A DNA stretch of 64,000 nucleotides, the filler included, from Sanchytrium tribonematis (lineage: Eukaryota): the NCBI GenBank assembly GCA_018985235.1. It is 6 parts of 6 records of this genome, joined end to end, with 100 filler letters (N's around TTAATTAATTAA, not from the genome) between each part and the next. Parts side by side here need not be neighbours in the genome. Positions count along the whole stretch, not along the records: positions 1 to 31,687 come from JADGIG010000048.1; 5 more parts are not named here. One strand, 5' to 3'. Under the pieces are notes generated by a model. It worked only from the letters and a program-made list of their open reading frames with translations. It made no database searches and was not told the origin of the DNA. This document shows, one piece after another, positions 15,432 to 54,240 of this stretch (position 1 is its first letter; each line of letters starts with the position of its first letter). The position numbers and the translations under genes were made by a program.

Positions 15432-17583
15432 ATGTCTAATTTAGATTATGAAATTATTGAATGTAGCAGCTATTCCTCTGCCTATCATCCAAACAACATA
15501 AAATCCTGTAATCAAAATGGCGTTGTTACTGACCAAGGCTCCAGATGGAGCAGTAACAGCAATAATCAACAACAATATATGATATTGAAATTAAAACAAC
15601 ATTGCTGCGTAAATTCAATTTTATTTGGAAAATTTCACAAAGTTCATGTATGCAACCTTAAAGAATTTAAGGTTTTTGTCAGTTATAATAACAAACAGTA
15701 TATTCAAGTATTGCACGACGGACTCAAGAATGACACGGAACCAGAGACGTTTTCAATCAAAAATGCCATCAAAAATTCAGACGGAGTCACTTATCCAGTT
15801 CAATATCTTAAGATTGCTCCTTTACTGGCCCATGGCGCTAATTTCAATTTTTCCATTTGGTACCTTGAGCTTCATGGAGAATTAATTGCAGATAATACAG
15901 TGCAAAACTACATCAAGTATCATACTGACTTGAGCTTGAAAGTAATTTTAAAATATCTAAGGCAGCAAAACAATTTTTTACCAATATACGATGCTCTTCA
16001 AAACCATACCAATATTTCTTTAGAACATCCTTATCTTCAAAAATTGTACAACTTGATATCTAATGGCTCTTTTGAGGAAAGCTACACCCATTTAAATACA
16101 GCCAGTATGCAGTGGTTTGAAAATTACTTATCTAATACCCTTTATTCACCAAAATGGTCAAAATTGCTTAATTGTGATCGTAATGGAATTGATTTACCAA
16201 GTAGGGGTGGACATCAAATGGTCAAAGGAAAAGATGGCATTTTTTTGTATGGTGGTTGGAATGGGAGCCAAGACTTAAAAGATTTATGGTTTTATGATTC
16301 GACTTGGCATAGTGTTGAATTTGACAAGTCAAAAGACCACCCTAGTGCCAGAAGTTGTCACAAGATGCTATATAATAGTAATGACAATTCATTGTATGTT
16401 TTTGGAAGGTATATTGACCAAGAAAGTCGTTCTACCGCAAGTTTGCAAGCTGATTTTTGGAAATTTAGTATAAATAATAAGAAATGGGAACTTTTAAGCA
16501 AAGATACTCAAGCTGAGAATGGACCAGGTCTACTATTTGACCACCAAATGGTTTTGGACCAAGTCCGCAATCAAATTTTCGTTTTTGGAGGTAAAACCGT
16601 AATGATGTCTACAGAAACAGTTTATAGTGGATTTTACAAGTACGATGTTGCCTCAAAATCTTGGACAGAAATAGAGACTGAAAAAGATTCTGTTTCAATG
16701 AAATCTCGAATTAGCCATTCTATGTTGTTGCATCAAAAGCGGGACTGCATCTACATTTTTAGTGGCCAGCGTTTTAAGGATTATCTTGCAGACATGTATG
16801 AGTATAATCTTTCTTCGGGTACTCTCAAGGAATTATCTAGAGACTATTCAAAACAAGGCGGACCAGTTTGTGGGTTTACTCAACGGGCCACGTTAGATGA
16901 GGACCGCGATGAGATCTATGTATTTAGCGGGCTTGTCAGGGACAAATTTTCCTCCCGGGATTGCGTCAGAAATACATTTTGGGTCTTCAATATTAAACAC
17001 AACAAGTGGAGGATGATTTTCCAAAATTCACCTTCGGATAGTTTGCAGTTACCTTCAACTCCTGATTCGGAACTTTCCTCTCCTACGAGTCCTGTTCTGA
17101 ATCATGAATTTGATGACGAGCCAGTGCCAAGATATGCTCATCAACTGGCATATGACCCTTTGACAAAATTGCACTATCTTTTTGGTGGTAATCCAGGATC
17201 TGTGGGCAACCCTCGTGAAAGGCTAAATGATTTTTGGGGTCTACAGTTAAATAGACCCACACCAGAGGAGCTGCTTTCCAAAATCAGGCTAATTTTGAAA
17301 ACACAACAGTAACATTTTTTAATTTAGGTACAAGGAAATTTGCTCTAATGATCCAATATCGGCTCTTAAATTTTTACACAATAACGTGGCTCCTTTAATC
17401 AATCATGATGATTCTTCTCAAAGAAATCAATTTCAGTCACTCACTCAATATTTATTTAATCCACATAAAGTCGATCTTTTTACTGAAAGAATTCAAGTCT
17501 ACGATGAAATTGTATCTTACTTTCCCAAAGAGATGAAACAACCTGAGGTAGATTTAATGGATTTGATACCAATTGATTTGTAA
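15432..17583 (+). CDS. MKLN1: Muskelin (discoidin-LisH-CTLH-Kelch); exons 15432-17308 and 17328-17583 (710 aa)
   Basis: DQGSRWSS, FGKFHKVHVCNLKEFKV, Kelch repeats (RGGHQM, RSCHKM, PRYAHQ), and a spliced C-terminus reading DPISALKFL. Confidence 0.92.
17309..17327 (+). other. 19-nt spliceosomal intron in muskelin
   Basis: gtaacattttttaatttag; contains the ORF stop, and removal restores the muskelin C-terminus. Confidence 0.9.
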
Positions 17584-17606: not shown

Positions 17607-18627
17607 TTAAAAGTCAACGTCTGTTGTGAAAACCATTCTGTTTTCATCAGCGGCTTTGCTACTATTTAGAACACCGCTTTTTTGGTATTCACTGACTCTT
17701 TTTTCAAAAAAATTGGTCTTTCCCTCAATACTGATCATATCCATAAAGTCAAATGGATTGTTTGCATTGAACATTTTAGGACAATTTAATGCACTGAGCA
17801 ATCTATTTGCACAAAATTCGATATATTCTTTCATCATTTCCGCATTCATTCCAATAAGGCTGACTGGTAGTGAATCAGTCAAAAATTCCTGCTCAATAAC
17901 AACTGCATCTGCTATAATTTTGTTGATTGTTTCTAAAGAAGGCTTGTTCTTAATGTATTTGAATAACAAACATGCAAAATCGGTATGCAAGCCTTCGTCA
18001 CGGCTAATCAACTCATTGCTGAAAGTTAATCCAGGCATAAATCCACGTTTTTTTAACCAGAAAATTGACTACGTAAATCAGAAATACAGCAAAACTACCA
18101 CTAAAAAAGATGCCTTCTACCGCTGCAAATGCAACTAGTCTTTCACCGAAATTGCTGCCGCTTTTAATCCATTTCAAAGCCCAATCTGCTTTTTTCTTGA
18201 TACAAGGGATAGTGTCAATACTATTGAAAAGTCTAGTTTTTTCTTCTTGGTCCTTAATGTATGTATCGATCAAAAGGGAGTAGGTTTCTGAATGGATGTT
18301 TTCCATCATCATTTGAAAACCGTAGAAACATCTTGCTTCAGGTAATTGAACATCCTTTGCAAAACGTTCAACCAAGTTCTCGAGGACGATTCCGTCACTC
18401 GCAGCAAAGAATGCTAAGACATGCTTTATGAAATGCTGCTCATTTTCATTCAACTTATCCCAATGCTCTTGGTCTTTACTCAAATCAATTTCTTCTGCAG
18501 TCCAGAAAGACGCTTCAGCTTTCTTATACATTGCCCAGATATCACCATACTGGATTGGGAACAGCACGAAACGACCCGGGTTCTCTCTGAGTAAAACTTC
18601 GTCATCAAGATTGATATTTCCTGTCAT
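17607..18627 (-). CDS. RNR2: Ribonucleotide reductase small subunit; exons 18627-18088 and 18068-17607 (333 aa)
   Basis: [43 protein letters not shown] and KTNFFEKRV. Confidence 0.97.
18069..18087 (-). other. 19-nt spliceosomal intron in RNR2
   Basis: gtatttctgatttacgtag; removal restores the conserved [13 protein letters not shown]. Confidence 0.96.
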
Positions 18628-20709: not shown

Positions 20710-21754
20710 TTAATTTACACTTCCCAAGGGAAAACTTCTTCTGCTAATGGTATCAATGCTGTAATCCAGTATGGAATTTTCTAAGCCTAAATAAAAATGA
20801 TATACCAACAAAACAGCGTTTGCTATCAGGTGAGAAACAAATTCCAGAAATGTGAAGATCGTGGTCATCAGGAGCTACCCTTATAACCTGTTTCTCATTA
20901 AAAGTTCTTGCATCGACAAGATGGACGTAGCTAACGTGTTCGCTAAACATAAGTAAATCGATAGAACCACTAGGAGAAAATTTGACATTTCTAGCTGCAC
21001 CTTTGGCTCGCGGCCATTGGTGTGTTTGTAATTTAGCTATTTTATCTCCTGTATTCCTAATATCAAAAACACTAACAGCGCCATCTTGACTAGCTACAGC
21101 AAACCTCTCTGATGATTGATTCCATGAGCAAGCAAATCCTGCATCTGCTGATGTTGAAAGGGTATTTTCTAAGATGTAATCACCATTATTAGTTATATGG
21201 TATAAAAAGACAGAATTAACATCTCCTGTCGCAATCATTTTGGTTCCATCTGGACTAACACTAACATAATTGACAGCAGTCGGAAGTTGCAATGATGATA
21301 TTCTTTGAAGTCCCGGTAAAGTATATGCCTTAATGCTCTCGTCGTTGTTGCAAATTAATAATCTATGTCCATGAAGCGGGTGATTTGTAATGGCTATACT
21401 ATTATTTATACTTCCACCGACGCTGGTATGTGCATACCAATTAGTCGCCAACTGTCTGACCATCAACTGACTTCTTTGGCCACCTGCGGCAACATAGCCG
21501 TGACCGACATGCATTGAGGTCGGCGAAAAGGTTAATTCTTTCATTATTGGCAAAATCATGTTGGTTTTTGAATTAAAAGTGCTTACATTATTTTGATAAA
21601 CGTGGAATATTTCACTTGAATCATAAGGACAAGCGATCAGATCTCGTAATTGCCAATGTTGAATTGTAGTTTTGACATTGTGCTTCAAGGATGCCAACTT
21701 TGTAAATGTAAATGTAGAATTTAAAGGATTAGTATTTGATGGATTAATCGTCAT
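20710..21754 (-). CDS. WD40 protein, DUF2415 family; exons 21754-20806 and 20786-20710 (341 aa)
   Basis: TIQHWQLRDLI, SVGGSINN, ASQDG and LLMFSEH. The spliced end reads VGLENSILDYSIDTISRRSFP. Confidence 0.85.
20787..20805 (-). other. 19-nt spliceosomal intron
   Basis: gtatatcatttttatttag; removal gives a family-like C-terminus. Confidence 0.82.
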
Positions 21755-21815: not shown

Positions 21816-23939
21816 TTATTTGATACTTAATCGGTGTGCAATGCATCCGTAGGTAGGATTGGTGGATTTCCCAAATATGACTCTTTTGGTTTTACTTCCA
21901 AAAAATTGGCTGCCTGTCTTGATCCATGTCAGTTCGGAGATAGTATCAGGATTTAGAAATATTAAGGAGTCACATGGAATACGCTGATCTTCATAGTTCT
22001 TCGACACAAGAAGCAAAGTGCAGCAATTTTTGGCATAATACTGAATTTTGAGATCATCATTCTCAAATATATCTAGTGGTAGCATTAATTCGACATTATT
22101 CAAAAAATTCTTAATTTTTTGGTCTAGAGAGACACTGCTATCGGGAAAGCAGCTTTCTAACTTCTTTTTCATGGCCAAATCAGTCTCTGACAGCTGGTGG
22201 TGCAATTCTTTATTGTGGAGTAATTTCACAAATCCAAATAAATGAAATTTTACCAATGAAAGTATTTTGGAGAGGTCTGCACAATAGCTATTTTCTTTAG
22301 ATAATATCTCGCAAATTCTTGCCGCTGTGTTTTTAATGCTTAAAATCTTGTATTCCACTTCTTTTAGAATAATATTATTTCCTCCTTCATAAAGAATGGC
22401 TATATTGAGTGTGCTTTTCATATTCTCATACAGACCAGTCAATTCCGGTAAATGATCAGAATATATCACAGTTTTTTCCGATTGGTGAGAAAACGCAAAA
22501 TTGATCAACAAGTCTTCAGTTAAAGAATGCTGACTCATACCACAACCAGCCATTGACAATATTACAGAAAATTCTTTGCTACTCCATTTTTTAACTAATT
22601 GCATATCCTGTTTCATTTCTATGTATATGTTATTTTCAAGGCAATAAAATTTACCAGTTACTTTAGACGCGTTTTGCTGCGTCAATTCTGAAAAGTGATT
22701 ATCGTCAAAAAAGCAGTTACCCAAAAGCTTTCTCTCTCCATTTTTTACCGGACATTGAAATTTTAAAAGAAAAATTTTCATGTCGGGGTCAAGTGATTTT
22801 GGAATTAACTCCAATGTGCGAATGACACTTGAAAGTTTGTCGCCTGAGAAATATACAAGATCATATCTTTCTTGTATTTTTCCTTGATACCGTACCTTAA
22901 TAATCAATTCGGATCCAGATATAAGTTTCGATACTGCAATAATTTCACATAAGCCAATAAATGAGAATCCGTCTGAGCCTATGGTTAAAAGCACCAGCGT
23001 GTCTTTGACTTTAAGAAATGTCCACTTTTTGTGTTCTTTGGCAGAAAAATAAGCCAAGTTCAAATGAATGTCAACTTCTTGAAAATCCAAATGCGATATA
23101 AATTGAACTTTCTTATTGGAAAATGTCACGATGGGAGCTAAACAACAGTGCCAATTCAAAATGGATATTTCTTTGCCCGAAAATTTTGGTTCTAATATTT
23201 CAAAGATGAACTGTAGTTCTTGTTGCAAATGGTACAAGTTGTAAATATAGTAAAATTCTTTGACCGCATGCCAATACTCATCGAAAAAATTAAAATTGAA
23301 AGACATTGGGAGTATGTTGCGAGCTTTGATTTTTCTTTTGAGATCTAAACTAGGTATAATGCTTATAGTTTTTGACTGGGGAATGTCAATCCAATCCACT
23401 ATCATTTTGATAAGTTTGGTTTTGTCCTCATTTCCCAGTTTATATCTTGTCTTTACTAATTCAAAGTCGCTTTCTGTTATCAGATTTAAAATAGTTTCAA
23501 CATAGCTAGATGGTATTTTGCTGCTAGGAATAATGTAAAATTCTTTTGGGACCTTCTTGTACAGGAGAAATTGCAAATCTGAAATTGATGGTAAAAGAAA
23601 ATTGTCATCATAAGGGCGAGTAGCCAAAGCTCTCAAAAACCTACCATCACTACCCCACAAAATATGCAATCTCATTTGAAAACAAGCGATTCTGGCAAAT
23701 TTTCTATACTTGAAATCTAAAAGTAAAGCAATAACATCTTCTACAGTTCTCTCATGGTGTGATTCTTTCCAGTCTATCTCTTTTTTTAACAACTGTTGCA
23801 GTTCTTCAGAAAGTCCCCCAAAAAGTAGAGCAGGATCGGCAATTTGAAGTTCAACATGTAAGTCTATTGTGAGCTCTTCAGACTTTGGATTTTTAAGCTT
23901 TTGTTGAATATCTTTGAAAATGCCGAATTTGGTAATCAT
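21816..23939 (-). CDS. Highly degenerate, truncated Aquarius (AQR/IBP160)-like spliceosomal helicase homolog (707 aa)
   Basis: Colinear blocks match Aquarius: LPMSFNF..EY ~ LNLQFL..DY; NW..LAPIVTF ~ GWARMAQPIVAF; W..LKVKDTLVLLTI ~ WEGLRKHDVCFLITV; QSEKTVIYSD..LTGLYE ~ PEQRTLIVTH..LNQLFE. The GPPGTGKT motif is absent. Confidence 0.65.
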   Translation of the reverse strand: MITKFGIFKDIQQKLKNPKSEELTIDLHVELQIADPALLFGGLSEELQQLLKKEIDWKESHHERTVEDVIALLLDFKYRKFARIACFQMRLHILWGSDGRFLRALATRPYDDNFLLPSISDLQFLLYKKVPKEFYIIPSSKIPSSYVETILNLITESDFELVKTRYKLGNEDKTKLIKMIVDWIDIPQSKTISIIPSLDLKRKIKARNILPMSFNFNFFDEYWHAVKEFYYIYNLYHLQQELQFIFEILEPKFSGKEISILNWHCCLAPIVTFSNKKVQFISHLDFQEVDIHLNLAYFSAKEHKKWTFLKVKDTLVLLTIGSDGFSFIGLCEIIAVSKLISGSELIIKVRYQGKIQERYDLVYFSGDKLSSVIRTLELIPKSLDPDMKIFLLKFQCPVKNGERKLLGNCFFDDNHFSELTQQNASKVTGKFYCLENNIYIEMKQDMQLVKKWSSKEFSVILSMAGCGMSQHSLTEDLLINFAFSHQSEKTVIYSDHLPELTGLYENMKSTLNIAILYEGGNNIILKEVEYKILSIKNTAARICEILSKENSYCADLSKILSLVKFHLFGFVKLLHNKELHHQLSETDLAMKKKLESCFPDSSVSLDQKIKNFLNNVELMLPLDIFENDDLKIQYYAKNCCTLLLVSKNYEDQRIPCDSLIFLNPDTISELTWIKTGSQFFGSKTKRVIFGKSTNPTYGCIAHRLSIK

Positions 23940-23967: not shown

Positions 23968-24504
23968 TCATTCATTAAAATCATCATGCTCGTTATTAAA
24001 ATTGTCAACATGAGTTTTCATCTTTCCATTTCGCCAAGTAATATACTCTTCCATTTCTCGAACTACAAGAAATGCAGGATCTGTTATTGTACTGGGCCCG
24101 ACTCTAACATGACCTTGCATAATGAGTTCGTGAGCATGGCTTATTCTTTCCGCCATTTTAAGATGAACCATGACACATGACAATCTTCTTTTCGCAAGAC
24201 TGCTCACAGATAGCTTTTCTACTTGACTCAGACCATCAAGATCGTGGATTACACCTAACGCATATAATTTCTTTAAAATTCGCATTGTCATATACAATCG
24301 AAAGGGATCGTCTCTATCAAGTGTACTTATTTTGTTGGCAAGATGCTTTAATTGCCCGATAAGTTGGTTATAAAGAATGTATTCTTCTCTGTTCTTCATA
24401 TTAAATCTACGTACAACTGTATTTGAATGCGTTGAGTCCGATTTCCACTCCAAAAAGTTAGTTTTTTTAAGTAGTTTTTGTTCGTGAAATTTGAGTTGTC
24501 TCAT
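23968..24504 (-). CDS. IMP3: U3 snoRNP protein Imp3
   Basis: Starts MRQLKFHEQKLLKK; S4 domain RRL..MAE..QGHVRVGP..DPAFLV. Confidence 0.95.
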   Translation of the reverse strand: MRQLKFHEQKLLKKTNFLEWKSDSTHSNTVVRRFNMKNREEYILYNQLIGQLKHLANKISTLDRDDPFRLYMTMRILKKLYALGVIHDLDGLSQVEKLSVSSLAKRRLSCVMVHLKMAERISHAHELIMQGHVRVGPSTITDPAFLVVREMEEYITWRNGKMKTHVDNFNNEHDDFNE

Positions 24505-24636: not shown

Positions 24637-25315
24637 ATGATTTTGGCAATATTTGTTCTTGGAATTAAATTTCATCTTAATGTCCCTCCTACTGGTCAAG
24701 AGTATAAGTTTTGTCTTTCAGAATACGTCGCTGACTCTACCAAGGTTCAAGGTGATTTTGATATTCAAAATCAGGCAGAGCAACAAATAGATCTCAAAGT
24801 GTTTGACAGTCCTGTGCAGCCTTTTGAAAATGACAATAATGGGAAAAAAGAAATTCACGATAATGTTTATTATAGCAAAACAGCCATATCCTCAAAAGGA
24901 ACATTTACCTTCACAACTCACAAGTTTGCAAATATATTATTTTGTTTTACAAATCTGTACGCTGGCAACGCGGCAACTAGAAGCACTCTGCACACACCAG
25001 TAACTTTCACCGTCAACACTGGCATGGATATTCATGAGTCATACGCAGAATATGAGGCCAAGGAGAAGTTGAAGCCTATGGAGACTGATCTGAAGAAAAT
25101 TGCTGATATTTCTAAGGAAATTGTGGAACAGCTGGAAGATCTCAAAGTCAAAGAAATGTATCTTAGAGATGTCAATGGTAATTGTTATTAACTTAGAAGA
25201 TGCGTTGCAAAGGGTTACCTCATATTCATTATTTAGTGTAGTCGTGCTTGTGGGAGTCGGAATTTGGCAAGTCTATTACCTCAGAAGTTTCTTTTTATCA
25301 AAAAGAATGATTTAA
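24637..25315 (+). CDS. ERV25: p24 cargo receptor (Erv25/TMED10 family); exons 24637-25177 and 25197-25315 (219 aa)
   Basis: GOLD-domain cysteines, AKEKLKPME, LRDVN|EDALQRV, a TM helix and the YLRSFFLSKRMI tail. Confidence 0.88.
25178..25196 (+). other. 19-nt spliceosomal intron in p24
   Basis: gtaattgttattaacttag; removal restores RDxNE. Confidence 0.93.
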
Positions 25316-28948: not shown

Positions 28949-31687
28949 ATGCCAACTTTGGATGTTCATTGTAGAAATTGTGGTACACATCTGACAACGA
29001 ATGAAAGTCTCTTCTTTTTAAACAAGTCTCCGTGTGAGCTTGTTGTCAATTTGGACCAAAATTACAGCCTAGATACCAAGACGAATGAGTTCAATTTTAA
29101 ATGCACTCAATGTAAATTCACACTTGGGTCATATTCTGGGAACCATGGTAACTTTGATGTAGAAACCATTAGTGGTACATTGGATGGTTTTGAGATCAAA
29201 GGAAATATGCAGGATTGGAGGAAATATTGTACGAGTGTGGAAGTCAAGGAGCCTGAGGATGACGGAAAATTACAATGTAACAAGTGTGGCATTATAATTA
29301 TTTCGACTTATAAATTGTCATTTTTCGTAGAATCTCAAACTACAGTCAGGCTTGTGTTGAATCCTAAAGTACAAGAAGTAGTATTGAGTTCAAATGAATT
29401 GAACATCAAGCCTTCCAAAGACAATATGAATATATCGAATGTTTATTGCAAAAATATGGACTGGATTGGATTAGCTAGACCGTTGGAAGAATCTAGTAAC
29501 TTTAATTATGTACAGTTCGAACACAGCAAGACCTCTCTTTATATGTATGGGAAGAGACAAATTGAAAGGTATAACAAAATGTACAAATATTTGGGACTCG
29601 AAAAAATTTATAGTAACAAATTGCGTAAAATATCCAATTCCAGGTTTGAAATGCTGCCTATTAATTTGCCTTCTCACGATGAACTTTGTAAACTCATTCA
29701 GCATTACAATTTAACAAAAACCAAACCATATGACTTTCAAGTTGAAATGCTATATTATGCAGTTTTTTCCAATACCATTATTCACCTTATCACTGGCGCT
29801 GGTAAAACTCTTGTTAGTTCTATGGTTATCAAAATACTTCACAATCTTAATCCAGATAGATTATGTGTCGTTGTGGAACCCACTGTTCCTCTGGTTGGTC
29901 AACAAGCATCTTATTATGAAAAAGAGTTGGGACTTAAAGTTGTCAAGTTGTACGGTGAAATCAAAGACAAAGAGAGAGAGAATATATGGTTACAAGGCAA
30001 AAATAATTGTGATATTTTAGTTGTAACTCCCAAACTTTTTCAAGATTTAATTGAATCGACAAAACTTACCTTCGGTCAAATCGCAGCTATCATCATTGAC
30101 GAATGTCACAACGTGGTAGGAGGTCATCCAATCAATCAAATTCTTGAAAATTATTATAGTGTATTAGAAGCTGATGTTAGACCTAGATTAATAGGGTTGA
30201 CTGCTTCGCCGGTTAATGCTGTAGATGAAAGAACAGTCGTTAGTTCCAAATTAGAAAATTTACAACGAACATTCTGCGGAAAGGTTGTCACTCCTATGGA
30301 ATGTAATATGATGAGAATTCTAGACGTTGCCGAAATGATTGTGGAGCCAATACTAAATTATCAGTTAGATGAAGTATTCCCAAAGTTGTTAGATACTTTT
30401 CTAGAGTCTATTGCCACTCTTTTACTAATTAAAAAAGGTTTAGAACCTCTAAAGAAAAATCCAAACTGGATATCGTTCTACTCAAATAGGCACCTAATTT
30501 ATGAAACTGATTTTAAATTGAAGGAATTTTGCCTAAATTTGATTCAAGCTTTGGATATAAATTACGTTTTGGGACCGTATGCTACTGCGACTGCTATTTT
30601 AAAACTGCTAGACACTTTCGAAATTAATTCGCTAGAAAACAATATCATTTGCATAATTGATGAGTTTATAAACAATTTAAAATCTCTAGTTTCACGTTAT
30701 CAGAATTGTGGTTATTCTCAAAGATCCAATTGCCTGATTAATTTACTAGAGCAATTTATCTCATCTTCTAATGCGTATGAAATAAGCCAGACAAGAATAT
30801 TAATCTTTACTGATAAAAAGATATATTCTCGCTTTTTATATCGAGCCCTAAATGAGAACAACATACTTAAAAATTACAATCCTACCTTCATTGTGGGACA
30901 AGGTGGAAATGGTAAAATGAATTGGGAAAAAGATCAAAAACATATATTGAAGAATTTTGAAAATGGAGTGTCCAAAATTTTGATTAGTACTTCTGTCCTT
31001 GAGGAGGGTTTAGATATATCACAATGCAGCCATGTAATATTATTCAGCGATGAGTCTATAAATCATTTGAGAATGATTCAAATGAGAGGAAGGGCTCGTA
31101 AATCGGAAGGAAAATTCATCATTTTATCTAATCCAAATAATATCGAAGCTATTGTTAAACGAACCATTAAAGACTTGTCTAAAGAATGGAAGAATGTCAA
31201 ACTAGATATTAAATTAATAGAATTTATCTCCAAGTTTAAATCCTCAAAAATAATAATACCGCAAGCCCCACATGAAAAACCATGCCTGAATGAAATTAGA
31301 TTTGATTTTTTGACAGACGAGTATACTGATGATGACTTGGACAATCTAATATCACTGTTGGGCAAATCAGATATAAAGTGTGAGAATTTTGTTATATCGT
31401 CCTCTCAGACTCATACTGAGCTACTATTTAATCTATCTGAAGCCTTGGCTTCTACCCTACCTTCTCTCTGTTGGAAAATTAGACCCAGCAATATTGACTT
31501 CAAGCCAGCAGTCGATCATATTCTTTTCTCCGTCAACCAGGTTTCTAGAGGATTTTCTGTAGACAAAACTCAATTTTGTTGTATAGATTCTACTCATCCG
31601 GAAAAAATCAAAATACTGGATTTTAATTTGAACGAACTTTCTTTGGAATTTCCCTACAAAACATGTATGGCAAAAGCACACTTTCAG
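28949..31687 (+). CDS. Dicer/RIG-I-like DExD/H helicase with two N-terminal Cys-rich domains; 3' truncated at the contig end
   Basis: TGAGKT, DECH, GLTASP, TSVLEEGLD and QMRGRAR; N-terminal CRNC..CTQC and CNKC..C. Confidence 0.85.
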
Positions 31688-31787
31688 NNNNNNNNNNNNN
31701 NNNNNNNNNNNNNNNNNNNNNNNNNNNNNNNTTAATTAATTAANNNNNNNNNNNNNNNNNNNNNNNNNNNNNNNNNNNNNNNNNNNN
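31688..31787. other. Artificial contig-joining spacer
   Basis: 44 N, then TTAATTAATTAA (stops in all six frames), then 44 N. Confidence 0.98.
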
Positions 31788-34700
31788 CTGAAGACGAAGA
31801 AGGCGCTCTCTCAAATCGTTAGAGGATTTTTTGTCTGCTTTAGACGTAGTTTCCGCAGGAGTTATATCTTCCTCGGCTTTTGAGGATTCGCGATCTTCTG
31901 ATTCCTTTTCTTCCAAATCAGCTGACTGCAAATCTTCTTTTATGGAAGGATCCTTCTCATCTTGCGACCTTGAGACTTCCTCCTCGACATCTTCGTTTTC
32001 ATCATGGCTTTCACGCGCCTGTGGCTCATTCTGAGTTTCAATGATTTCCACATGAGCTGAAGCCTCTTCTGTCTCGCTGACAATTTCTTTGCCCAAGCTG
32101 ATTGTAGGAGATTTCAAGTTGGGAGATTCAGGTTCAGGTGTTTCCACTGCAGGAGAGGGCTTTACCACTTTGATTTTTTCTTCAAGATCTCTGACTTTTT
32201 TCTCTGCATTAACTTTTGCTATTCGAACACCTCCCAGTTCTTCCCTCAAGTCTTCAATCTCGTGGATCAGAGCTTTATTTTTGTTTTGCATGTTTTGAAG
32301 CATAGCACCACTGTTTTTGATTTTTTTTGAGAGATCATTCTTCTCGTACGTTATACTTTCAAATTTTTTTTGGATGTCCTCATACTTGTGTCTCAATTCA
32401 TTCAAGTCTTCTTTCTGTGACTCTTGTGGATTATTTTTCACCAAGTAGCTCCTTGATCGATATTCCTGAATTTGAGACTGTAACTCTGTCACTTGGTTTT
32501 GGTATTCTTCTAATTGCTGTTGCAATTTCCGTTCCATGCGAGGAACATTGAGAAGTTGATTTTCAAGCTCCAGTATTTTGTTTCTCTGTTGATGCATGTC
32601 ATGGGTGAGTTTTTGCTTATCATTTCTGAGAGATTGATTCGCATCCATAAGACTGGAATTTAATTCAAATTTGACGGGTGGTAAGATTTCCGGAGCTTTG
32701 TTGCGAAGATTTTTCACTTCCATCTGAAGAGTATCATTTTGATTCCTCAAGAGCTTGATAATATCATTTTCATTATTGTTTTTCAAAATTGTATCTAATT
32801 GAAAAATTTGAGTGTTTTTCTCCTGAATTTCAGTTTCCAATGTAGTAATCTTGGCATTCAGTTTGTTTAAATTTGATTTCAGGCTTAAAGATTCACTTTG
32901 TAATTTTTTGTTCAACTCTAACTCTTTCGCCAACTGCATTATATGTTGACGATTTTGATCGTTTGAATTTTGCAAGTCAAGCTTAAGAGAGTCAATCATT
33001 CCAATATTATCATTAAGTTGCTGCTGTATGGATTTGATTGTGAGTTCAAAATGGGATTTTTCGCTTCGCAACATCGAAATAGTTGCTTTTGATTCGTTTT
33101 CCTTTGAATTTTTTTCAGTTACTAATTTCTTCAATAGATTTTGCTGACTTTCCAAATCAGCCATTGCTTTTGAATGTTGATTTGAAAGGGTATCATTTTC
33201 TACTGTCAATTCATCAATGTTTTTCTGTAAAGTTGCCTTAATTTGGTCGAAATGTTTCGAAAGCTGGTCTTGAGTGGTGGATTGATCGGTCAATAACTTT
33301 TGAAGTTCATCGACCTCGTTTTGTCTCTGCTTTAAAGTAGCTCGAACCTCATTCACTTCACTTCTACGTTATAATGGAATACCTTTTAATTTCTAACAAA
33401 GCATCATATTTCTCTTGAATTGTAGCATCCTCTGAATCTGCCAGCATCTTGACTTTTTCCTCCGCAGCGTACAGATCATTACTTAATCGAGAATTAGTAG
33501 TTTGTAGATCCTCTTTTTCAGACTGTAGCTGAAGATATTTCATTTGCTTTGCCTGCAGTTCATTGTTAAGTTGCTGATATTGTGAATTCACCTTATTCAA
33601 TTGCTGTTTTAACTTAACATGATCCTGTAGCACCTGACTATTAATAGAGTCTTTTTCTGTTTGTAATACATTAAGTTTAGTTAAAAGCTCTTTTCTAGTT
33701 TCACTAATTTCAATATCTTTCTTCTCTAACTTGCTTTTCAATTGATTAAGCAATTGATTTTGCTCATTGTCTTTCATTTTCATAGATTTCTGGTATTGTA
33801 ATAGCTCTTGATTTTTTTGCTGAATTTCATTCGTCAAGGATTCATAATGTTTAACTCTGTTTTCCAGATTTGTTATTTCCAACTGGAGATCAATATTTAA
33901 TTGCTTCAAATGCGAAAATTGAGTCAGCTCATCTTCAAATTGGTCTTTTTGAGTTTTTGAATGTTCTTGTAATTCGATTTGGTGATCTAGCAACTCCTTT
34001 ATTTGTTGGTCCTTTTGTTTATTAATGTTTTGCAAACTTTTAAGATTTACGACAGTGCTATCATAAGATGTTTGCATTGTTTGTTTTTCCAGCATCAACA
34101 GCTGCAATTTGTGGTCTTTCGCCTTCAATTCTCTATCATGTATATGTTGCAATTCTGTGACCTGTTGAGTGGTTGTCTGCAATTGCGATTGCAAATTTTG
34201 AAGCTCTTCATTGTTTTTTAGCTTTTCATTTAATAATTTTAAATCTTTTAGTTCTTTGGAAATTGAAATATTGATATTTTTAAGCTCGGAATAGCTCGTG
34301 TTAAAATTTTCGACTTGAGCCCGCAGATCATTGATGATTTTCTCGTATTTGACCATTTTTTCTTTAGGATTGCCACCATATTGTTGCTGCAAGTTAGAGA
34401 CTTTTTCATTTAATTTGTACAATGTCGAGATAAGATTTTGATTTTGATCTTGTAATTCTTTGATATTTTCAAACGTAATTAAATCTAACTTATTTAAGCT
34501 GCTATCTTCATGCTCCATTGTTTGATATTTGACCATAGAAGGATGATTAGTGGATGAATGAGTAGTATTGAGCAAATGTTGTACTTGAAGACCAAGATCT
34601 GTATTTAACTTCTTCAAAACAACGTAATTACTTTGCAACTTGTTTAATTCCAAATCACGAGTATGACAAGCTCGCTGAAGAGAATCTGATTCTTTTTGCT

Positions 34701-36141: not shown

Positions 36142-38209
36142 ATGAATATTCGGCAATTTCCAACCAGAATTAAATGGTATAATTGCGGACCCACAACTTA
36201 CGATCACAGCCACATTGGTCACGCCAGAAATTATGTCTGTATAGATATCATAAGAAGAATTTTGCTGCACTATAATCATCATATAATTATGCTTCAAAAT
36301 GTCACAGACATTGATGACAAAATTATCAATAGAGGAAGACACATATTTTTAGTTAATTTATTCTGGGCTAAACCCAATAAGGAATCAATGCATTTAGCCC
36401 TTGATAAGTATATTAAAGATTATTTTAATTGCACAAACCAGGAATATCCTGTAAAATCAAATGAAATGCTCAAAATAGCTACTGATATAGAAGAAAAGGC
36501 CAAAATTGAAATGAGGATTGTTGCAGTCAAAAAGTTCCAGGAACATATGAATGGAACAAGCAACTCTGCCAATGATGAAGTGTATGAAAACACATTTGAC
36601 GTACTTGCCTATTATCTTGACTCTGTAGCCACTGAAACTGATTTGAAATCTTATAGTGATGATCACAAGCAATTTACTGATATGAGTAGATATTGGGAAA
36701 ATGAATATAACAAAGATATGGAAACATTAAATGTCATGCCACCTAATATAATAACACGTGCGACAGAATATATTGGACCTATTATCGAACACATCAATTT
36801 GATCAAAAAAAATGGATACGCTTATGAAAAAAACAATAGTGTTTACTTTGATGTGGTAAAGTTTAATAAAGAGCATGGTTACAGCAAATTGGAACCTCAG
36901 CATGTTACAGACACATTTGGGAAAGAAGACACCACTGGTGAGAAAAAGCACCTCGAAGACTTTGCGCTATGGAAAGCAAGTAAAAGTGGAGAACCCTCTT
37001 GGGAATCCCCATTTGGCATTGGTCGACCTGGATGGCATATTGAATGCTCAGCTATGGCTTGTCATTTTTTTAAAACCCTCGATATTCACAGTGGAGGTAT
37101 TGATTTATTGTTTCCTCATCATACCAATGAATGTGCTCAGGCAGAAGCCGCATATTTGCAGAAGTGGTGCGAAAAATTTATCCACATTGGCCATTTGCAT
37201 ATTAAAGGCGCCAAAATGAGCAAAAGTCTAAAAAATTTTATCACTATTAAAGACATGCTTAAAAAGTATACTCCGCAGCAATTTCGATTATTATGTTTAA
37301 TGCAGCCATGGCAAGGTACACTGGATTACCAAGAGGAGACGATGAAAGAAGTTTCAAGTGCTGAAAGCACCATTAAAAACTTTTTATTGAACGTTAAAGC
37401 TAAACTTTTGGAGCGAAATACCTGTATGCCACCCTTTAGCCAACTCGAACTAGATTTTTTAGAAAAAATGCGGATGTTGCAGGAAAGTACAGACAATAAT
37501 TTACAAGAATTAAACACTCACCATGTTATCCAGGATGTACTCAGGATCATAAACGAGGCTAATAGCCATTCTCTGGACGCGAGGATTTTACAATTAATAG
37601 CAGAGTACATTACCCAGATCTTTAAAATTTTGGGACTCATAAATTCCAACTTGAAAGTCGATTACAGCTATCAAGAGTCAAGCGTATTATTATTTAATGT
37701 AGAATGAGGCTGATGTGCTCCCGTTTGCTCAAGTTTTGAGCCAGTTCAGAGATAAGGTTCGGTCTTCCGCAATTGAAAGTAAAGATAAACAACTTTTACA
37801 AATTTGTGACGATCTTAGAGATAAAGATTGCGTAGACATTGGACTCAAATTGGATGATGTTGGTGGTGGAAAGGCGTTGATAAAGCTTGTAAACAAAGAA
37901 GACCTTAAAAAAGAAATGCAAATGAAATTGGAAGCCACTAAACTGAAAGACTTGGAGAGGTTGAAACAGAAAGAAGAAAAGCAAAAAAAAGAATTGGAGA
38001 AATTATTGAAAGGCAAGCTTGCGCCGCACGAATTATTCAGTACAGGAGAGCGGAGTAAAGAATTTTCTAAATGGGATGAAACTGGTTTTCCTACGCATGA
38101 TGCATCAGGTGAAGAGTTGAGCAAGGCTAAAACTAAGAAATTAAAGAAAGAATATGACAATCAATTCAAACTCAACGAAAAATATTTAAATTATTTGAAA
38201 TCTCAATAA
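36142..38209 (+). CDS. CARS: Cysteinyl-tRNA synthetase; exons 36142-37683 and 37703-38209 (682 aa)
   Basis: WYNCGPT, HIGH, DFALWK, GRPGWHIECS and KMSKS; exon 2 carries FRDKVR and CDDLRD. Confidence 0.97.
37684..37702 (+). other. 19-nt spliceosomal intron in CysRS
   Basis: gtattattatttaatgtag; phase 0, gives an in-frame fusion. Confidence 0.92.
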
Positions 38210-45403: not shown

Positions 45404-46545
45404 TTATTGTGGTGGTGTCGCATTCAACATTTTATATTGAGCAGATAAAAACATCCCTTTAGATTTAGCCATTTTACAAAACCAATCTTTGAAAATGTAA
45501 AATTGAATAAAAATTTGAGCTCTTCCCCCTAAATCAATTAAAATTTACCTGTGGGTCCCAATGTCACCAAAATGGCTTTTGGATCAGATGCACTTTCCGA
45601 TTTCATAGCCTTGTTATTCACTAAAGCAGGAATATTCTTTGCAAGCAATCCAACTTGTGGTCCAATTTGCACGACTGATTTGTATTTAGAGAAATTACAA
45701 CAATCCCCAATTGCAAAGATATTCGGATGATTCTCTACTTGCAAGGTCCCCTTTACTTTCACAAATCCACGATCATCTAAAATATTCAATGGTTTCAAAA
45801 AATCCGTGTTTGGCTTTGAAAATCCAATAGCAGAAATAATCAACCCACATTCAATTTTAACACCTTTATCAGTCACGATATGATACAATCCACTATTCCA
45901 TCCTTTCTCAACTGGATTTGGGATGTAAGTATTCAAATTTGCCACTTTATCACCCAAATGAAAAACAACGCCTTTCTTTACCAATTCTTGCTTCAATTCA
46001 TGACTTAATTTAGGTGAATAGGGTCCAGGGACTAAAGAATCACCAGATGAGACCACTGTAATCTTCTTATGGGGATATTTATGCAATATTTCCCCAATAG
46101 TCTCCAAACTTGTTGCACCAGCACCCACAAATAAAATATTTGTCGTTTCTCGAATCACATTTGACAATTCATTCATAGCAACCAATGACTCTTTCGCAGT
46201 CGATTTAATGGTCTTAAAAGGGGCTGCATAAGACATGCCAGTCGCAATCACCAAAATATCAAAATCAATCTGTTCCCCATTTTGACACACAACTTGCTTC
46301 TCACTCACCTGAGTCGCAATGGTATGCACCACACGTCCCTTGGTAATCAATTGATCAAATGGAATAAACATTTTAGGTGCAAATGTTGGATCTACAACCC
46401 CTCTCACAGATGCCACATTCCAATAATAATGATCTAATTTTGAGATTAATATGATTTCTACCTTGTCTTTTAATGATTTCTGTACTTGTTGAATCACTTG
46501 TACTGCTGCTACTCCACCTCCAATAATCACTAATTTGAGAGCCAT
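45404..46545 (-). CDS. AIF/AMID (FSP1-like) FAD-dependent oxidoreductase; exons 46545-45549 and 45528-45404 (373 aa)
   Basis: IIGGGVAA, LVIATG, VGAGATSLE and IFAIGD; spliced C-terminus TLGPTGG..AKSKGMF. Confidence 0.9.
45529..45548 (-). other. 20-nt spliceosomal intron
   Basis: gtaaattttaattgatttag; removal adds the family-like KSKxxF tail. Confidence 0.85.
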
Positions 46546-46870: not shown

Positions 46871-47283
46871 AATCATTTGTGTTATTTCATGGTCATTTAT
46901 AGTCATTCTCACATTAATTATTTTATTTAAGTAAATGTATTTATGAATATTGCCGTGCATTTGTATTATAAATGATTAATTCGCACAAGATATCACAATT
47001 ATTTTTGTTATTCTTGCACAAGGACGTGTTGATTCATTTGATTTGGTAATCATGAAATTAAATACATGATTGGTCAAATATCAATCACTAGTCTGTAAAT
47101 AGTTCTTCCAATGATTTCGTGCGTCTGTATGTCTGCAGTGAATCCAATGTTTTGTGATGCGTGTCATTCGTCTGTAGAGTCACAAAACAAGATCAAATCA
47201 CGTCAAACTACATTTAGAATCATTGCAGTCATTTCATGGTCATTGATAGTCGTATTCACATTAATACTATTTTACAAATAAAT
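46871..47283 (+). repeat. Imperfect direct repeat pair of about 65 nt (46871-46936 and 47218-47283)
   Basis: aatcatt..atttcatggtcattKatagtc..tcacattaat..tatttta..taaat occurs twice, 347 nt apart. Confidence 0.75.
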
Positions 47284-47306
47284 CCCAATATTTTTTAAAA
47301 CTTCAA

Positions 47307-47855
47307 ATGATCTCCTTTGAAATTTACAATGATTTACCAAATCAATTCAAACAAACCAAATTAACAGATAAAACCATTCAAACATATACAAAATGGATTA
47401 GAAGATATATGACATTCTGTGATACAAAGCATTTAGATTATGGCACATCTCATAATAAAATGATGGAAACTGTCAAGGATAAAAAACAACGCATGCAAAT
47501 TAGACGTGCTATTGGGTATTTTTATCAATTTGCAGGGGTTGAAGATGTGAATAATCCATGTAAAATCACTGGATATCAATTGGTAGCAAATCAAGAGAAT
47601 AAACAATATCAATCCTTTTTAAATCAAAAAGAGGATGCAATGCAAGTCATTGATGATAAAATGGATCAAAATAATAGTAAACCCGTTAAACCAGTTGAGC
47701 CAGTCGTGATTAAACCAATACCACAACTTGAAAAAGTCGTGGAAGCATTTGAATTTGATGATGATCACGAGAGTATTCGGCAACAAAAATTAAACATGTA
47801 TAAATATGGAATCAAGAAATTAAGTGAATTAATGCAAATGGTGCATGAATTATAA
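47307..47855 (+). CDS. Protein with an N-terminal tyrosine-recombinase core-binding (SAM-like) domain and no catalytic domain
   Basis: LTDKTIQTYTKWIRRYMTFC..QRMQIRRAIGYFY..NNPC resembles integrase SAM-like N-termini. Confidence 0.55.
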   Translation: MISFEIYNDLPNQFKQTKLTDKTIQTYTKWIRRYMTFCDTKHLDYGTSHNKMMETVKDKKQRMQIRRAIGYFYQFAGVEDVNNPCKITGYQLVANQENKQYQSFLNQKEDAMQVIDDKMDQNNSKPVKPVEPVVIKPIPQLEKVVEAFEFDDDHESIRQQKLNMYKYGIKKLSELMQMVHEL

Positions 47856-52060: not shown

Positions 52061-52160
52061 NNNNNNNNNNNNNNNNNNNNNNNNNNNNNNNNNNNNNNNN
52101 NNNNTTAATTAATTAANNNNNNNNNNNNNNNNNNNNNNNNNNNNNNNNNNNNNNNNNNNN
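52061..52160. other. Artificial contig-joining spacer
   Basis: N44-TTAATTAATTAA-N44. Confidence 0.98.
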
Positions 52161-52677
52161 AAATAAAAAACCAAGACAGACACATCAAAACTCCATGGGT
52201 CGTTTGAAGAGCTGAGCTGTAGTTATCCAAAGCACTGAAATCTCCATTTTCTAAATTCATTTTGAAACTACCACTCAAATCATGATACGGTATAGCTGCA
52301 CTTTCATCAGCAGAATTAATTTTATCAACACCCCAGCACCATATAAAAGAATTAACGGTATTGATTGTTGGCTTGTTGGGCTCTAACAATGTTCTAGAAA
52401 GCTGTGCTGTGACTCGATTGTTACTAGTTCCGGAATTTAAAAGATTCCAGCTATTTTTTTGACTCGCAATATCGTGACCGGCTCCTTTTCTATTGGTAAC
52501 GACAACTTTGTCATTGTTTTTCCAGATAATAATCATATCAGAGCCATCCATATTAGCCCCGGTCCCAAAAGCTCCAAAACCAAGTGTGGAATCATAGTCT
52601 ATGGTGATATTAACGTAAGTATCAACTTTAAGCGCCTTTATGCATAATTTTTTGTCGCTAGTGCAGAAGGTTGACAT
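52161..52677 (-). CDS. DOMON plus cytochrome b561 (ferric/cupric reductase-like) protein, 3' truncated
   Basis: FGAFGTGANMDGSDMIIIW (heme Met) and IPYH (heme His), then the first b561 helix THGVLMCLSW. Confidence 0.85.
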
Positions 52678-52913
52678 GAAACAATGTTTTTGGCTTTAAA
52701 GATCGAATTTTGTGAGAACGAAAAGGATTTTTCTGTTTAAAGCTGAAATTTAACATTACTAGTCAAATTTGATTTTTAAAAACTCCGAGGATCCCAATCT
52801 CAAAACGTATGTCACATCGCAAGCCATGTGCTCGCTTTGTAGCCATCTTATTGGTTCAAGTAATTATAAAACATACGCACATGCACATAGCCTTTTGAGA
52901 GATTTTTGATTCG

Positions 52914-53562
52914 ATGTTATTTTCCTTGTATTTGACAATCTATGGTCATGTCACCGCCAATCCGAATTCTGGGCCTGCTAAGGGGTATTTCGTGTCGTAC
53001 TTTCGTATTGGGCATGCCTGCACCGCGTCTGAAAGTACCACATCAGTTGAAATTCAAATTCCCGATGGTATCTATACTGCTAAGCCTAAGTTCACTGCTG
53101 GTTGGACTTATAACGTGACTTCGGTAGCTCTGGATAAACCAATTTCGAATGGAGAATCAACTATCACTTCCAAGGTGACTAAAGTGTTATTTACAAGTGC
53201 TGCTGGTCTCCCTAACGATGCTTTTGAAGATCTAGGATTAAGTTTCCAACTGCCTGATGCGGCTGGATCGGCCTTGTTTTTCAAAACAACACAATTTTGT
53301 ACGTCAAACACGACCGCATGGGTCAATATTCCCGCAAATAATGACCCTGCGCAATGGGAGACAACCCCAAAACCAGCGCCATATATTAAGGTATTGGCAG
53401 CTGAAGGCTCAAGCTCTGCTGACACTACTGCTGCAACTCATGATCCAACAGTATTGGGAATTGGAGTCGCTGGTATTATTTATTAATATAGGATTAGTCA
53501 TAGGAGTTATTGCTATCTCAATAGCAAGTGTTTTGGCAATTAAATTGAAAAAGAAGAATTAG
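52914..53562 (+). CDS. YcnI/DUF1775 copper-binding protein with C-terminal TM anchor; exons 52914-53472 and 53492-53562 (209 aa)
   Basis: Signal peptide then HVT.NP; FRIGHAC, TT.V.I.IP.G, KP....GW, F.T.Q.C, W..IP and PAP; TM helix followed by KLKKK. Confidence 0.85.
53473..53491 (+). other. 19-nt spliceosomal intron in the YcnI-like gene
   Basis: gtattatttattaatatag; removal completes the TM helix. Confidence 0.88.
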
Positions 53563-53701
53563 CAATAAATTTTGGAGATTAATTTTATTTAAAATCAGTA
53601 ATACTATATTGAGAGATGTGAAATTATAGATAGAAAAACACACAGTTCATGCCTCTGGAGAATTATAAAGTCAATTTGACGAAATACAATTTATTAGATA
53701 T

Positions 53702-54124
53702 TTATTCGTGGCATTCCACAATTTGTTGGGTGGATGGAAATATGATATGTGCCAAAACCTTGGCCACAACAATAGTAATTAGCAAAGTCCCGTTAAATGA
53801 CATCATGACCAACATCAAAAGACCGTTGATTAGCATCTTGATAAATAATAGACTAGGATTTAAGTAACAATCGTATTTTGGTGCAAGTTTACATAGATCC
53901 GGAATGTGAATGCTAAATACTTCATTTACGAATGAAAGAAAACCTACAATAAAAATTGAAGCTATAAATAATTCGACAGTAGTGACATGCCAAAATTCAA
54001 AAAGTATGTAAAAATCTGTAGTTTTGAAGTTTAGGAACATTCCCATTGCACCCATTGATGAGCTGTCCGACGATGAACCGCTATTTCCTCCCATATTGCC
54101 CATGTTTCCCATATCGTGATCCAT
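53702..54124 (-). CDS. Ctr-family copper transporter
   Basis: Met-rich N-terminus MDHDMGNMGNM..MGAMGM, ILFEFW, and the MxxxM motif MLVMMSFN. Confidence 0.9.
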   Translation of the reverse strand: MDHDMGNMGNMGGNSGSSSDSSSMGAMGMFLNFKTTDFYILFEFWHVTTVELFIASIFIVGFLSFVNEVFSIHIPDLCKLAPKYDCYLNPSLLFIKMLINGLLMLVMMSFNGTLLITIVVAKVLAHIIFPSTQQIVECHE

Positions 54125-54240
54125 TCTTGCGTTTCAGTTTCTCTAATTCCCAAATATGACAAGCAACTCCAAATCTTAGCAAAGATCAAACTCAGATGGA
54201 AATTCATTTCAAAGAAATATTTATTCTGTAATTCTCAGTT

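Follow-up and report, generated by a model that had tools for sequence, protein, structure and literature searches.

Human Aquarius (AQR, or IBP160) and its fission-yeast counterpart Cwf11 are the closest described systems to the protein analyzed here. Aquarius is a spliceosomal SF1 helicase and motor; it belongs to the intron-binding complex together with SYF1/XAB2, ISY1, and PPIE, and is present in activated spliceosomes. AQR translocates 5' to 3' on RNA, its RNA channel is composed of RecA1, RecA2 and the stalk, and an ATP-dependent role in spliceosome disassembly is described for it (PMC13736545). AQR also has an ATP-dependent role in catalytic activation (PMC10208982). In the spliceosome, AQR/Cwf11 sits on Syf1, with Isy1, and Cwf11 is a stable subunit on Syf1/Cwf3 (PMC4830896). 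The locus reported here is found in a stretch of 64,000 nucleotides, filler included, from the genome of Sanchytrium tribonematis (GCA_018985235.1; hereafter the window). An uninterrupted open reading frame (ORF) at 21816..23939 on the minus strand, with 707 codons and a TAA stop codon, encodes a protein designated P0001. Based on predicted structures, P0001 probably (about 0.7) consists of the N-terminal module of Aquarius and a RecA1 domain that has neither Walker A nor a following RecA2, and would function as a non-enzymatic, structural subunit. Rather than a helicase, we call it a pseudo-helicase derived from Aquarius.

The relationship to Aquarius was recognized at the level of structure. 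An AlphaFold2 model of P0001 was built from a five-sequence alignment and searched against the Protein Data Bank (PDB) with Foldseek. Ranks 1-16 were occupied by 4pj3 and by chains, 1195-1384 residues long, of the spliceosomes of human, C. elegans, Chlamydomonas, a thermophilic fungus, and fission yeast, with E values from 1.0e-11 to 9.4e-7 and 820-954 alignment columns. The next were SETX, UPF1, IGHMBP2, Sen1, and ZNFX1, at E 3.8e-6 or worse; the match to full-length SETX extended over 781 columns, and the other SETX, UPF1, and IGHMBP2 matches over 423-494. When the Foldseek list was aligned with VIA-align, Aquarius-type chains took ranks 1-15 (Z 14.7-16.9), and rank 16 was a generic RecA protein (Z 11.9). 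VIA-align without the Foldseek prefilter, against 48,161 PDB cluster representatives, placed the two Aquarius-type representatives on top, 9l5r_Y first (Z 16.4) and 3jb9_X second (Z 14.7), followed by a third-ranked chain at Z 11.6. Residues 1-456 were also folded separately, without the helicase part. This N-terminal model by itself retrieved Aquarius-type chains at Foldseek ranks 1-15 (E 1.2e-9 to 1.7e-5). Its residues 40..376 were aligned by VIA-align to AQR 175..670, with Z 8.2-10.7 and 16-17% identity to human AQR chains. In the ESM Atlas, the first match was an Aquarius cluster both for the whole P0001 (0.89, with 177/256 features in common) and for residues 1-456 (0.94, 196/256 features). 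These rankings indicate that the resemblance to Aquarius, which had originally been noticed by eye, is beyond chance. Judged from the models and the language-model matches together, P0001 is very likely to be derived from Aquarius.

The order of domains is the same as that in AQR (Table 1). The predicted helical N-terminal region, the beta-barrel and RecA1 with its helical insertion are aligned in this order to ~164-1126 of human AQR (structures such as 4pj3, 5xjc_Q, 6ff7_U, and 8ch6_y), and residues 29..707 of the model correspond to residues 164..1126 of the human Aquarius chain. For 4pj3, the Foldseek E value is 5.7e-8 and the VIA-align Z is 16.5. The helical region and the beta-barrel of P0001 together correspond to human AQR ~175-670, in VIA-align and in Foldseek with the N-terminal model. 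As far as the predicted structure goes, the Aquarius-specific N-terminal module, composed of ARM-type helices, stalk and beta-barrel, is thus present. The C-terminal part is predicted to be a Upf1-like, SF1-type RecA1 domain; residues ~468-707 were aligned by VIA-align to RecA1 of AQR, UPF1, Sen1, and nsp13. The predicted local distance difference test score (pLDDT) of the model is 70-92 over most of residues ~475-680, which covers the RecA1-like domain except its two less confident ends; it is moderate over 35-185 and poor over 190-470.

P0001 is about half as long as human Aquarius. The first ~165 residues of AQR have no counterpart in P0001, nor does anything after ~1126, which includes RecA2 and the C-terminal tail. 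The C-terminus of P0001 is aligned by VIA-align to residue ~1126 in human AQR, ~1108 in the chain of the thermophile and ~1035 in Cwf11. Residue ~1126, which we take to be the boundary between RecA1 and RecA2, is the farthest residue reached by any AQR alignment of P0001. The original prediction that the protein stops before RecA2 and is half the size of Aquarius therefore holds: the second RecA domain is absent, and all family members, which are 645-717 aa long apart from the 707 aa of P0001, end at the same point. Cwf11 (3jb9_X and 9esh_N) shows the same domain order, with Z 14.7-16.1 and model residues 30..707 aligned to Cwf11 141..1035. In contrast to P0001, which stops at the equivalent of ~1035, its modelled chain of up to 1,284 residues continues far beyond that point and presumably contains both RecA domains. 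Upf1-like helicases of the SF1B group (UPF1, SETX/Sen1, IGHMBP2, and ZNFX1) share with P0001 the 1B-type beta-barrel and a RecA1 domain with an inserted helical element, with Z of 7-8 on the barrel and 10-11.7 on the helicase part. For example, P0001 265..369 is aligned to UPF1 323..415 and Sen1 1177..1288 with VIA-align Z of 7.7-8.0. However, these helicases do not have the N-terminal module of the AQR type, their overall scores are far worse, and they are active ATPases with two RecA domains.

The catalytic motifs are missing from P0001. The Walker A pattern [AG]xxxxGK[ST] is found in none of the six family sequences (0/6). At the position expected for the P-loop, P0001 has the sequence SMAGCGMSQHS, which just precedes the helix 475-484 and the strand 490-494 of the model, the helix being the one that follows the P-loop in RecA folds. 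The AQR motif strings are GPPGTGKT and MEEA; the residue-by-residue equivalence between P0001 and AQR at the P-loop is a positional one, deduced from the fold. The strand at the Walker B position reads SLIFLNP, without an acidic pair. Both strings are in the places where the original prediction had put them. Among the relatives, only P0002 retains D-E on this strand (ILIYDE), and the others read YDG, IDA, and IDA. Motif III of the GD..QLPP type was not found in P0001; its position is taken by the strand KRVIFGK, after which the chain has 16 more residues. An active SF1B RNA helicase uses motifs I, II, III, and VI on a pair of RecA domains to translocate 5'-3' at the expense of ATP; P0001 does not have this set. 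As Walker A and the whole of RecA2 are absent, P0001 is predicted to be unable to hydrolyze ATP or to translocate on RNA. The claim that it is ATPase-dead is supported to that extent; judged from the sequence, ATPase or translocase activity is very unlikely, and we regard the loss of ATPase activity as highly probable. In human AQR, the function depends on the ATPase: with the Walker A mutation K829A, splicing comes to a halt ahead of the branching step (PMC10208982).

Truncation of the gene model is not the reason for the short length. The window is compact eukaryotic nuclear DNA that is readable in the standard code; its genes include those for TOR kinase, muskelin, Nuf2, the second-largest subunit of RNA polymerase I, and cysteinyl-tRNA synthetase (CysRS). 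The ORF at 21816..23939 was recovered with the coordinates, strand and stop codon originally described. The upstream neighbor ends at 23968, leaving a gap of 28 nt, and the downstream neighbor starts at 21754, leaving 61 nt. Thus, the gene model cannot be extended at either end, and the stop codon with the next gene only 61 nt downstream leaves no room for an exon for RecA2. No GT..AG candidate of 18-20 nt was found within the ORF on its own strand.

The short form is shared by a family. When 1.84 billion representative proteins were searched exhaustively with HMMER, five were returned at E <= 0.001, which are P0001 itself and four relatives: P0002 (717 aa, E 2.6e-130 against P0001), labeled Amoeboradix gromovi in EukProt, and P0003 (649 aa, E 3.2e-109), P0004 (672 aa, E 2.0e-90), and P0005 (645 aa, E 1.8e-86) from metagenome contigs. 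They are 33-37% identical to P0001 in the search and 31-36% in the alignment. The five-member alignment (A1) has 70 invariant columns and a common start and end for all members. The common length and ends indicate that the half size is a trait conserved across the family rather than a chance event at one locus. The Amoeboradix gromovi proteins are plain ORFs that TransDecoder predicted from contigs (PMC8371127), so that the ends of the P0002 record are not independent evidence on gene structure. In that paper, the word "intron" occurs solely inside a reference title (PMC8371127). If the introns of Amoeboradix gromovi are tiny as well, they would interrupt many of the protein models published for it. 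Columns ~480-515 of A1 (residues ~440-476 of P0001) are present in P0001, P0002, and partly in P0005, and are missing from P0003 and P0004; the segment at the P-loop position is therein wholly missing from the latter two. This gap at the former P-loop could be a true deletion, or could come from tiny introns or ORF-calling in the metagenome contigs.

Several observations weigh against the derivation of P0001 from Aquarius and the reading built on it. The original prediction had proposed a check by profile and by structure; the structural part was borne out by Foldseek and VIA-align, and the sequence-profile part, with Pfam and PDB profiles, failed. Neither P0001 nor any of the five members matched Aquarius_N_1st, Aquarius_N_2nd, Aquarius_N_3rd, AAA_11, or AAA_12 in Pfam hmmscan at E up to 10, and the Aquarius models of Pfam are blind to the family. 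The sub-threshold noise consisted of Clospo_01618-like, UBN_AB, and DEAD at 0.012. AQR chains among the PDB sequences were not matched by phmmer with P0001, by the profile of the whole family, by a profile of the C-terminal 230 residues, or by a 60-aa piece around the P-loop; MB21D2, Miro, and kalirin, at E 0.06-0.6, were the best matches of these searches. Confidence in the models is no more than moderate, with mean pLDDT of 57.6 for the whole P0001 and 57.2 for residues 1-456 and poor prediction at 190-470, and AlphaFold2 has been trained on AQR structures. The global TM-score against AQR is ~0.29 and the root-mean-square deviation is 12-14 A, because the domains of the P0001 model are placed differently from those of AQR; it is single domains that match, and the shape of the whole does not. 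In the ESM Atlas, four of the top ten named matches belong to the family of the first match, and the rule of the tool for five or fewer is "probably wrong". In the search output, 4pj3 alone is titled Aquarius. The other top spliceosome chains are presumably AQR/Cwf11, judged from the residue numbering shared with 4pj3 and from papers. Aquarius/Cwf11 is described in the matched spliceosome complexes (PMC4830896; bioRxiv 2024.09.13.612651).

Other searches returned no further member. The word-indexed search for homologues of near length retrieved only the query P0001, as did the word-indexed search with the family alignment, and among longer proteins of 1239-3535 aa no homologue was found at E <= 10. 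A scan of Joint Genome Institute (JGI) metagenome contigs with the family alignment gave 217 pattern matches, none of which was confirmed. No description of a motorless short form of Aquarius was found in the full-text literature on Aquarius with tiny introns, reduced spliceosomes or microsporidia. Papers retrieved for introns of 19 nt dealt mostly with nucleomorphs or were unrelated work in oncology.

If P0001 is the Aquarius-derived structural subunit proposed here, its retained parts, which in AQR dock onto SYF1/ISY1, would still dock there. The role as a motor, in which AQR pulls on intron RNA upstream of the branch site as the spliceosome is activated and taken apart, would have been given up. 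Whether P0001 still serves as a scaffold of the spliceosome is about an even bet. Budding yeast is similar in having no AQR motor: Aquarius is wholly lost there, PRP2 alone takes charge of catalytic activation, and splicing is therefore possible without the motor (PMC10208982). The difference is that the gene was lost in budding yeast, whereas a conserved motorless half is kept here, which suggests a retained structural role. The conservation of the family likewise argues that this role is under selection. A conserved Aquarius body without the ATP loop and RecA2 would be a natural separation-of-function allele, in which structure is separated from engine.

A diverged paralogue is the most serious alternative, though an unlikely one. 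In this case, an intact Aquarius would be encoded elsewhere in the genome, and the short copy would have another role, for example as a competitor for the docking site or outside the spliceosome. The identity to AQR chains, 10-12% over the whole model and 12-19% over the N-terminal region, is typical of a paralogue released from constraint. On the other hand, the five HMMER matches include no longer protein, which counts for little as a normal AQR is too divergent from P0001. Likewise, no SF1 helicase domain was found in the 45 of the 74 window frames (at least 90 aa) that were scanned.

The introns of the window may be relevant to why a motor could be lost. Each GT..AG of 12-60 nt was removed in turn, and the removals that joined two long frames were counted. 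The frame-joining candidates peak at 19 nt, with nine against 0-7 at every other length, and seven of the nine end in TAG. The ten ORF-joining 19-nt introns (Table 1) are ~80% A+T, with the consensus GTAWTT..TTNAY.TAG. TT at positions 11-12 is invariant, and A is found at position 14 in all ten. One of them (18069-18087) splits the small chain of ribonucleotide reductase, the two halves of whose Pfam profile lie in adjoining frames, and another (8718-8736) splits TOR kinase. The A at position 14 would be the branch point, at a fixed site 5 nt from the 3' end of the intron. If so, no more than 13 nt of the intron precede it. AQR is reported to bind ~40 nt from the branch point (PMC13736545), and an intronic AQR site upstream of the branch point is thus impossible in these introns, as the original prediction had calculated.

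These introns lead to an extension that is compatible with the structural-subunit reading and is still less likely than the paralogue: P0001 would be the sole Aquarius, and would have lost its motor since, with introns of 19 nt, there is no RNA ahead of the branch point on its upstream side to serve as a track. The P-loop and RecA2 would have been discarded, the docking half kept as a brace for SYF1/ISY1, and activation left to PRP2 alone. The shortness of the ten introns upstream of their invariant A and the precedent of budding yeast, which splices without AQR, are in favor of it. On the opposite side, a BLAST match to AQR is listed for Stentor, whose introns are 15 nt long (3e-26, 25% identity, 34% query coverage; PMC9505925 Table 1). 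If this match is genuinely AQR, the helicase need not be lost when introns are tiny; the match could equally be another Upf1-like helicase. Moreover, it is position and not sequence that determines where AQR binds, and its site could be in the 5' exon. A single lineage also represents just one evolutionary event, from which no correlation can be demonstrated. Mikrocytids have 16-17-nt introns and a spliceosome of 17-19 proteins (PMC10245619); neither "Aquarius" nor "AQR" appears in the main text of that paper. If P0001 is the sole AQR in an organism with ~19-nt introns throughout, the long-standing question of how introns smaller than the RNA-binding footprints of a megadalton spliceosome are dealt with would become testable. 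P0001 would also be an extant intermediate, standing between activation by two helicases as in human and activation by PRP2 only as in budding yeast, and the first case where a change in intron architecture is legible in a matching change of a core spliceosomal enzyme.

It is very improbable that P0001 is not Aquarius at all, being either what remains of another Upf1-like helicase (ZNFX1, SETX, or UPF1) or an unrelated protein on which AlphaFold2 imposed a fold known to it. The silence of the sequence profiles and the low mean confidence of the model would fit such an origin, and ZNFX1 clusters come second in the ESM Atlas lists. However, the Foldseek E values of AQR chains are 5 to 9 orders of magnitude better than those of SETX, UPF1, and ZNFX1 and their Z is higher by ~5 units, and the N-terminal part alone, which is free of the helicase, still picks AQR. 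A ZNFX1 or SETX remnant was rejected, as its fold scores are much weaker than those of AQR.

A split helicase, in which RecA2 is supplied by a separate gene and an active two-chain enzyme is rebuilt, is extremely unlikely. P0001 does end at the end of its RecA1-like domain, where all AQR alignments stop. However, a regained RecA2 would not restore ATP binding to a family that has no Walker A and in which two members miss the P-loop segment, and AAA_12 was not matched in the scanned window frames; this candidate was rejected as there is no P-loop to complete. A decaying pseudogene or a gene-calling artefact, to which the lost catalytic motifs and the missing domain might point, is just as hard to credit and was rejected on account of the conserved family, as 707 open codons and four relatives with the same length and ends and 70 invariant columns are not expected of neutral decay.

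Table 1. Positions in the window of P0001, its parts, its neighbors, the tiny introns, and a group of copper-related-looking genes
Feature	Position	Strand	Residues of P0001	Basis
Truncated Aquarius-like protein P0001, whole ORF (707 aa + TAA)	21816..23939	-		ORF call; four homologues of 645-717 aa
Helical region	23190..23834	-	~36-250	DSSP of models
Beta-barrel as in AQR and the 1B barrel of UPF1/Sen1	22848..23168	-	~258-364	Model strands
Linker, poorly conserved, poorly predicted (pLDDT < 50), with indels among members	22572..22847	-	365-456	Alignment, models
RecA1-like domain, with a long helical insertion (~520-640)	21819..22571	-	457-707	Model, VIA-align
SMAGCGMSQHS, expected P-loop position, no GxxxxGK[ST]	22524..22556	-	462-472	Position inferred from fold
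SLIFLNP, strand at Walker B position, no acidic pair	21948..21968	-	658-664	Model, alignment
KRVIFGK, last beta-strand, motif III position	21867..21887	-	685-691	Model
Upstream neighbor, Ribosomal_S4/S4 domains, IMP3-like; 5' limit of the P0001 gene	23968..24531	-		Pfam domains
Downstream neighbor, WD40/DUF2415; 3' limit of the P0001 gene	20753..21754	-		Pfam domains
19-nt introns	6775-6793, 17309-17327, 25178-25196, 37684-37702, 53473-53491	+		ORF-joining
19-nt introns	8718-8736, 18069-18087, 20787-20805, 33364-33382, 57738-57756	-		ORF-joining
Single 20-nt intron	45529-45548	-		ORF-joining
DOMON/CDH-cytochrome domain protein	52108-52695	-		Pfam
DUF1775 protein	52899-53483	+		Pfam
Ctr copper transporter	53705-54133	-		Pfam

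Some other features of the window were observed. A 928-aa SF2 helicase with DEAD, ResIII, and Helicase_C domains is encoded at 28949-31735(+), 5 kb from the Aquarius-like gene. Three adjoining genes at 52108-54133 look copper-related; DUF1775, in one of them, is presumably YcnI-like and mostly bacterial. At 58983-62966(+), 63152-63781(+), and 47265-47852(+), mobile elements have left traces: reverse transcriptase and RNase H domains are encoded in an ORF of 1327 aa, and a hAT dimerisation domain and a weakly matching phage-integrase SAM-like domain are also present.

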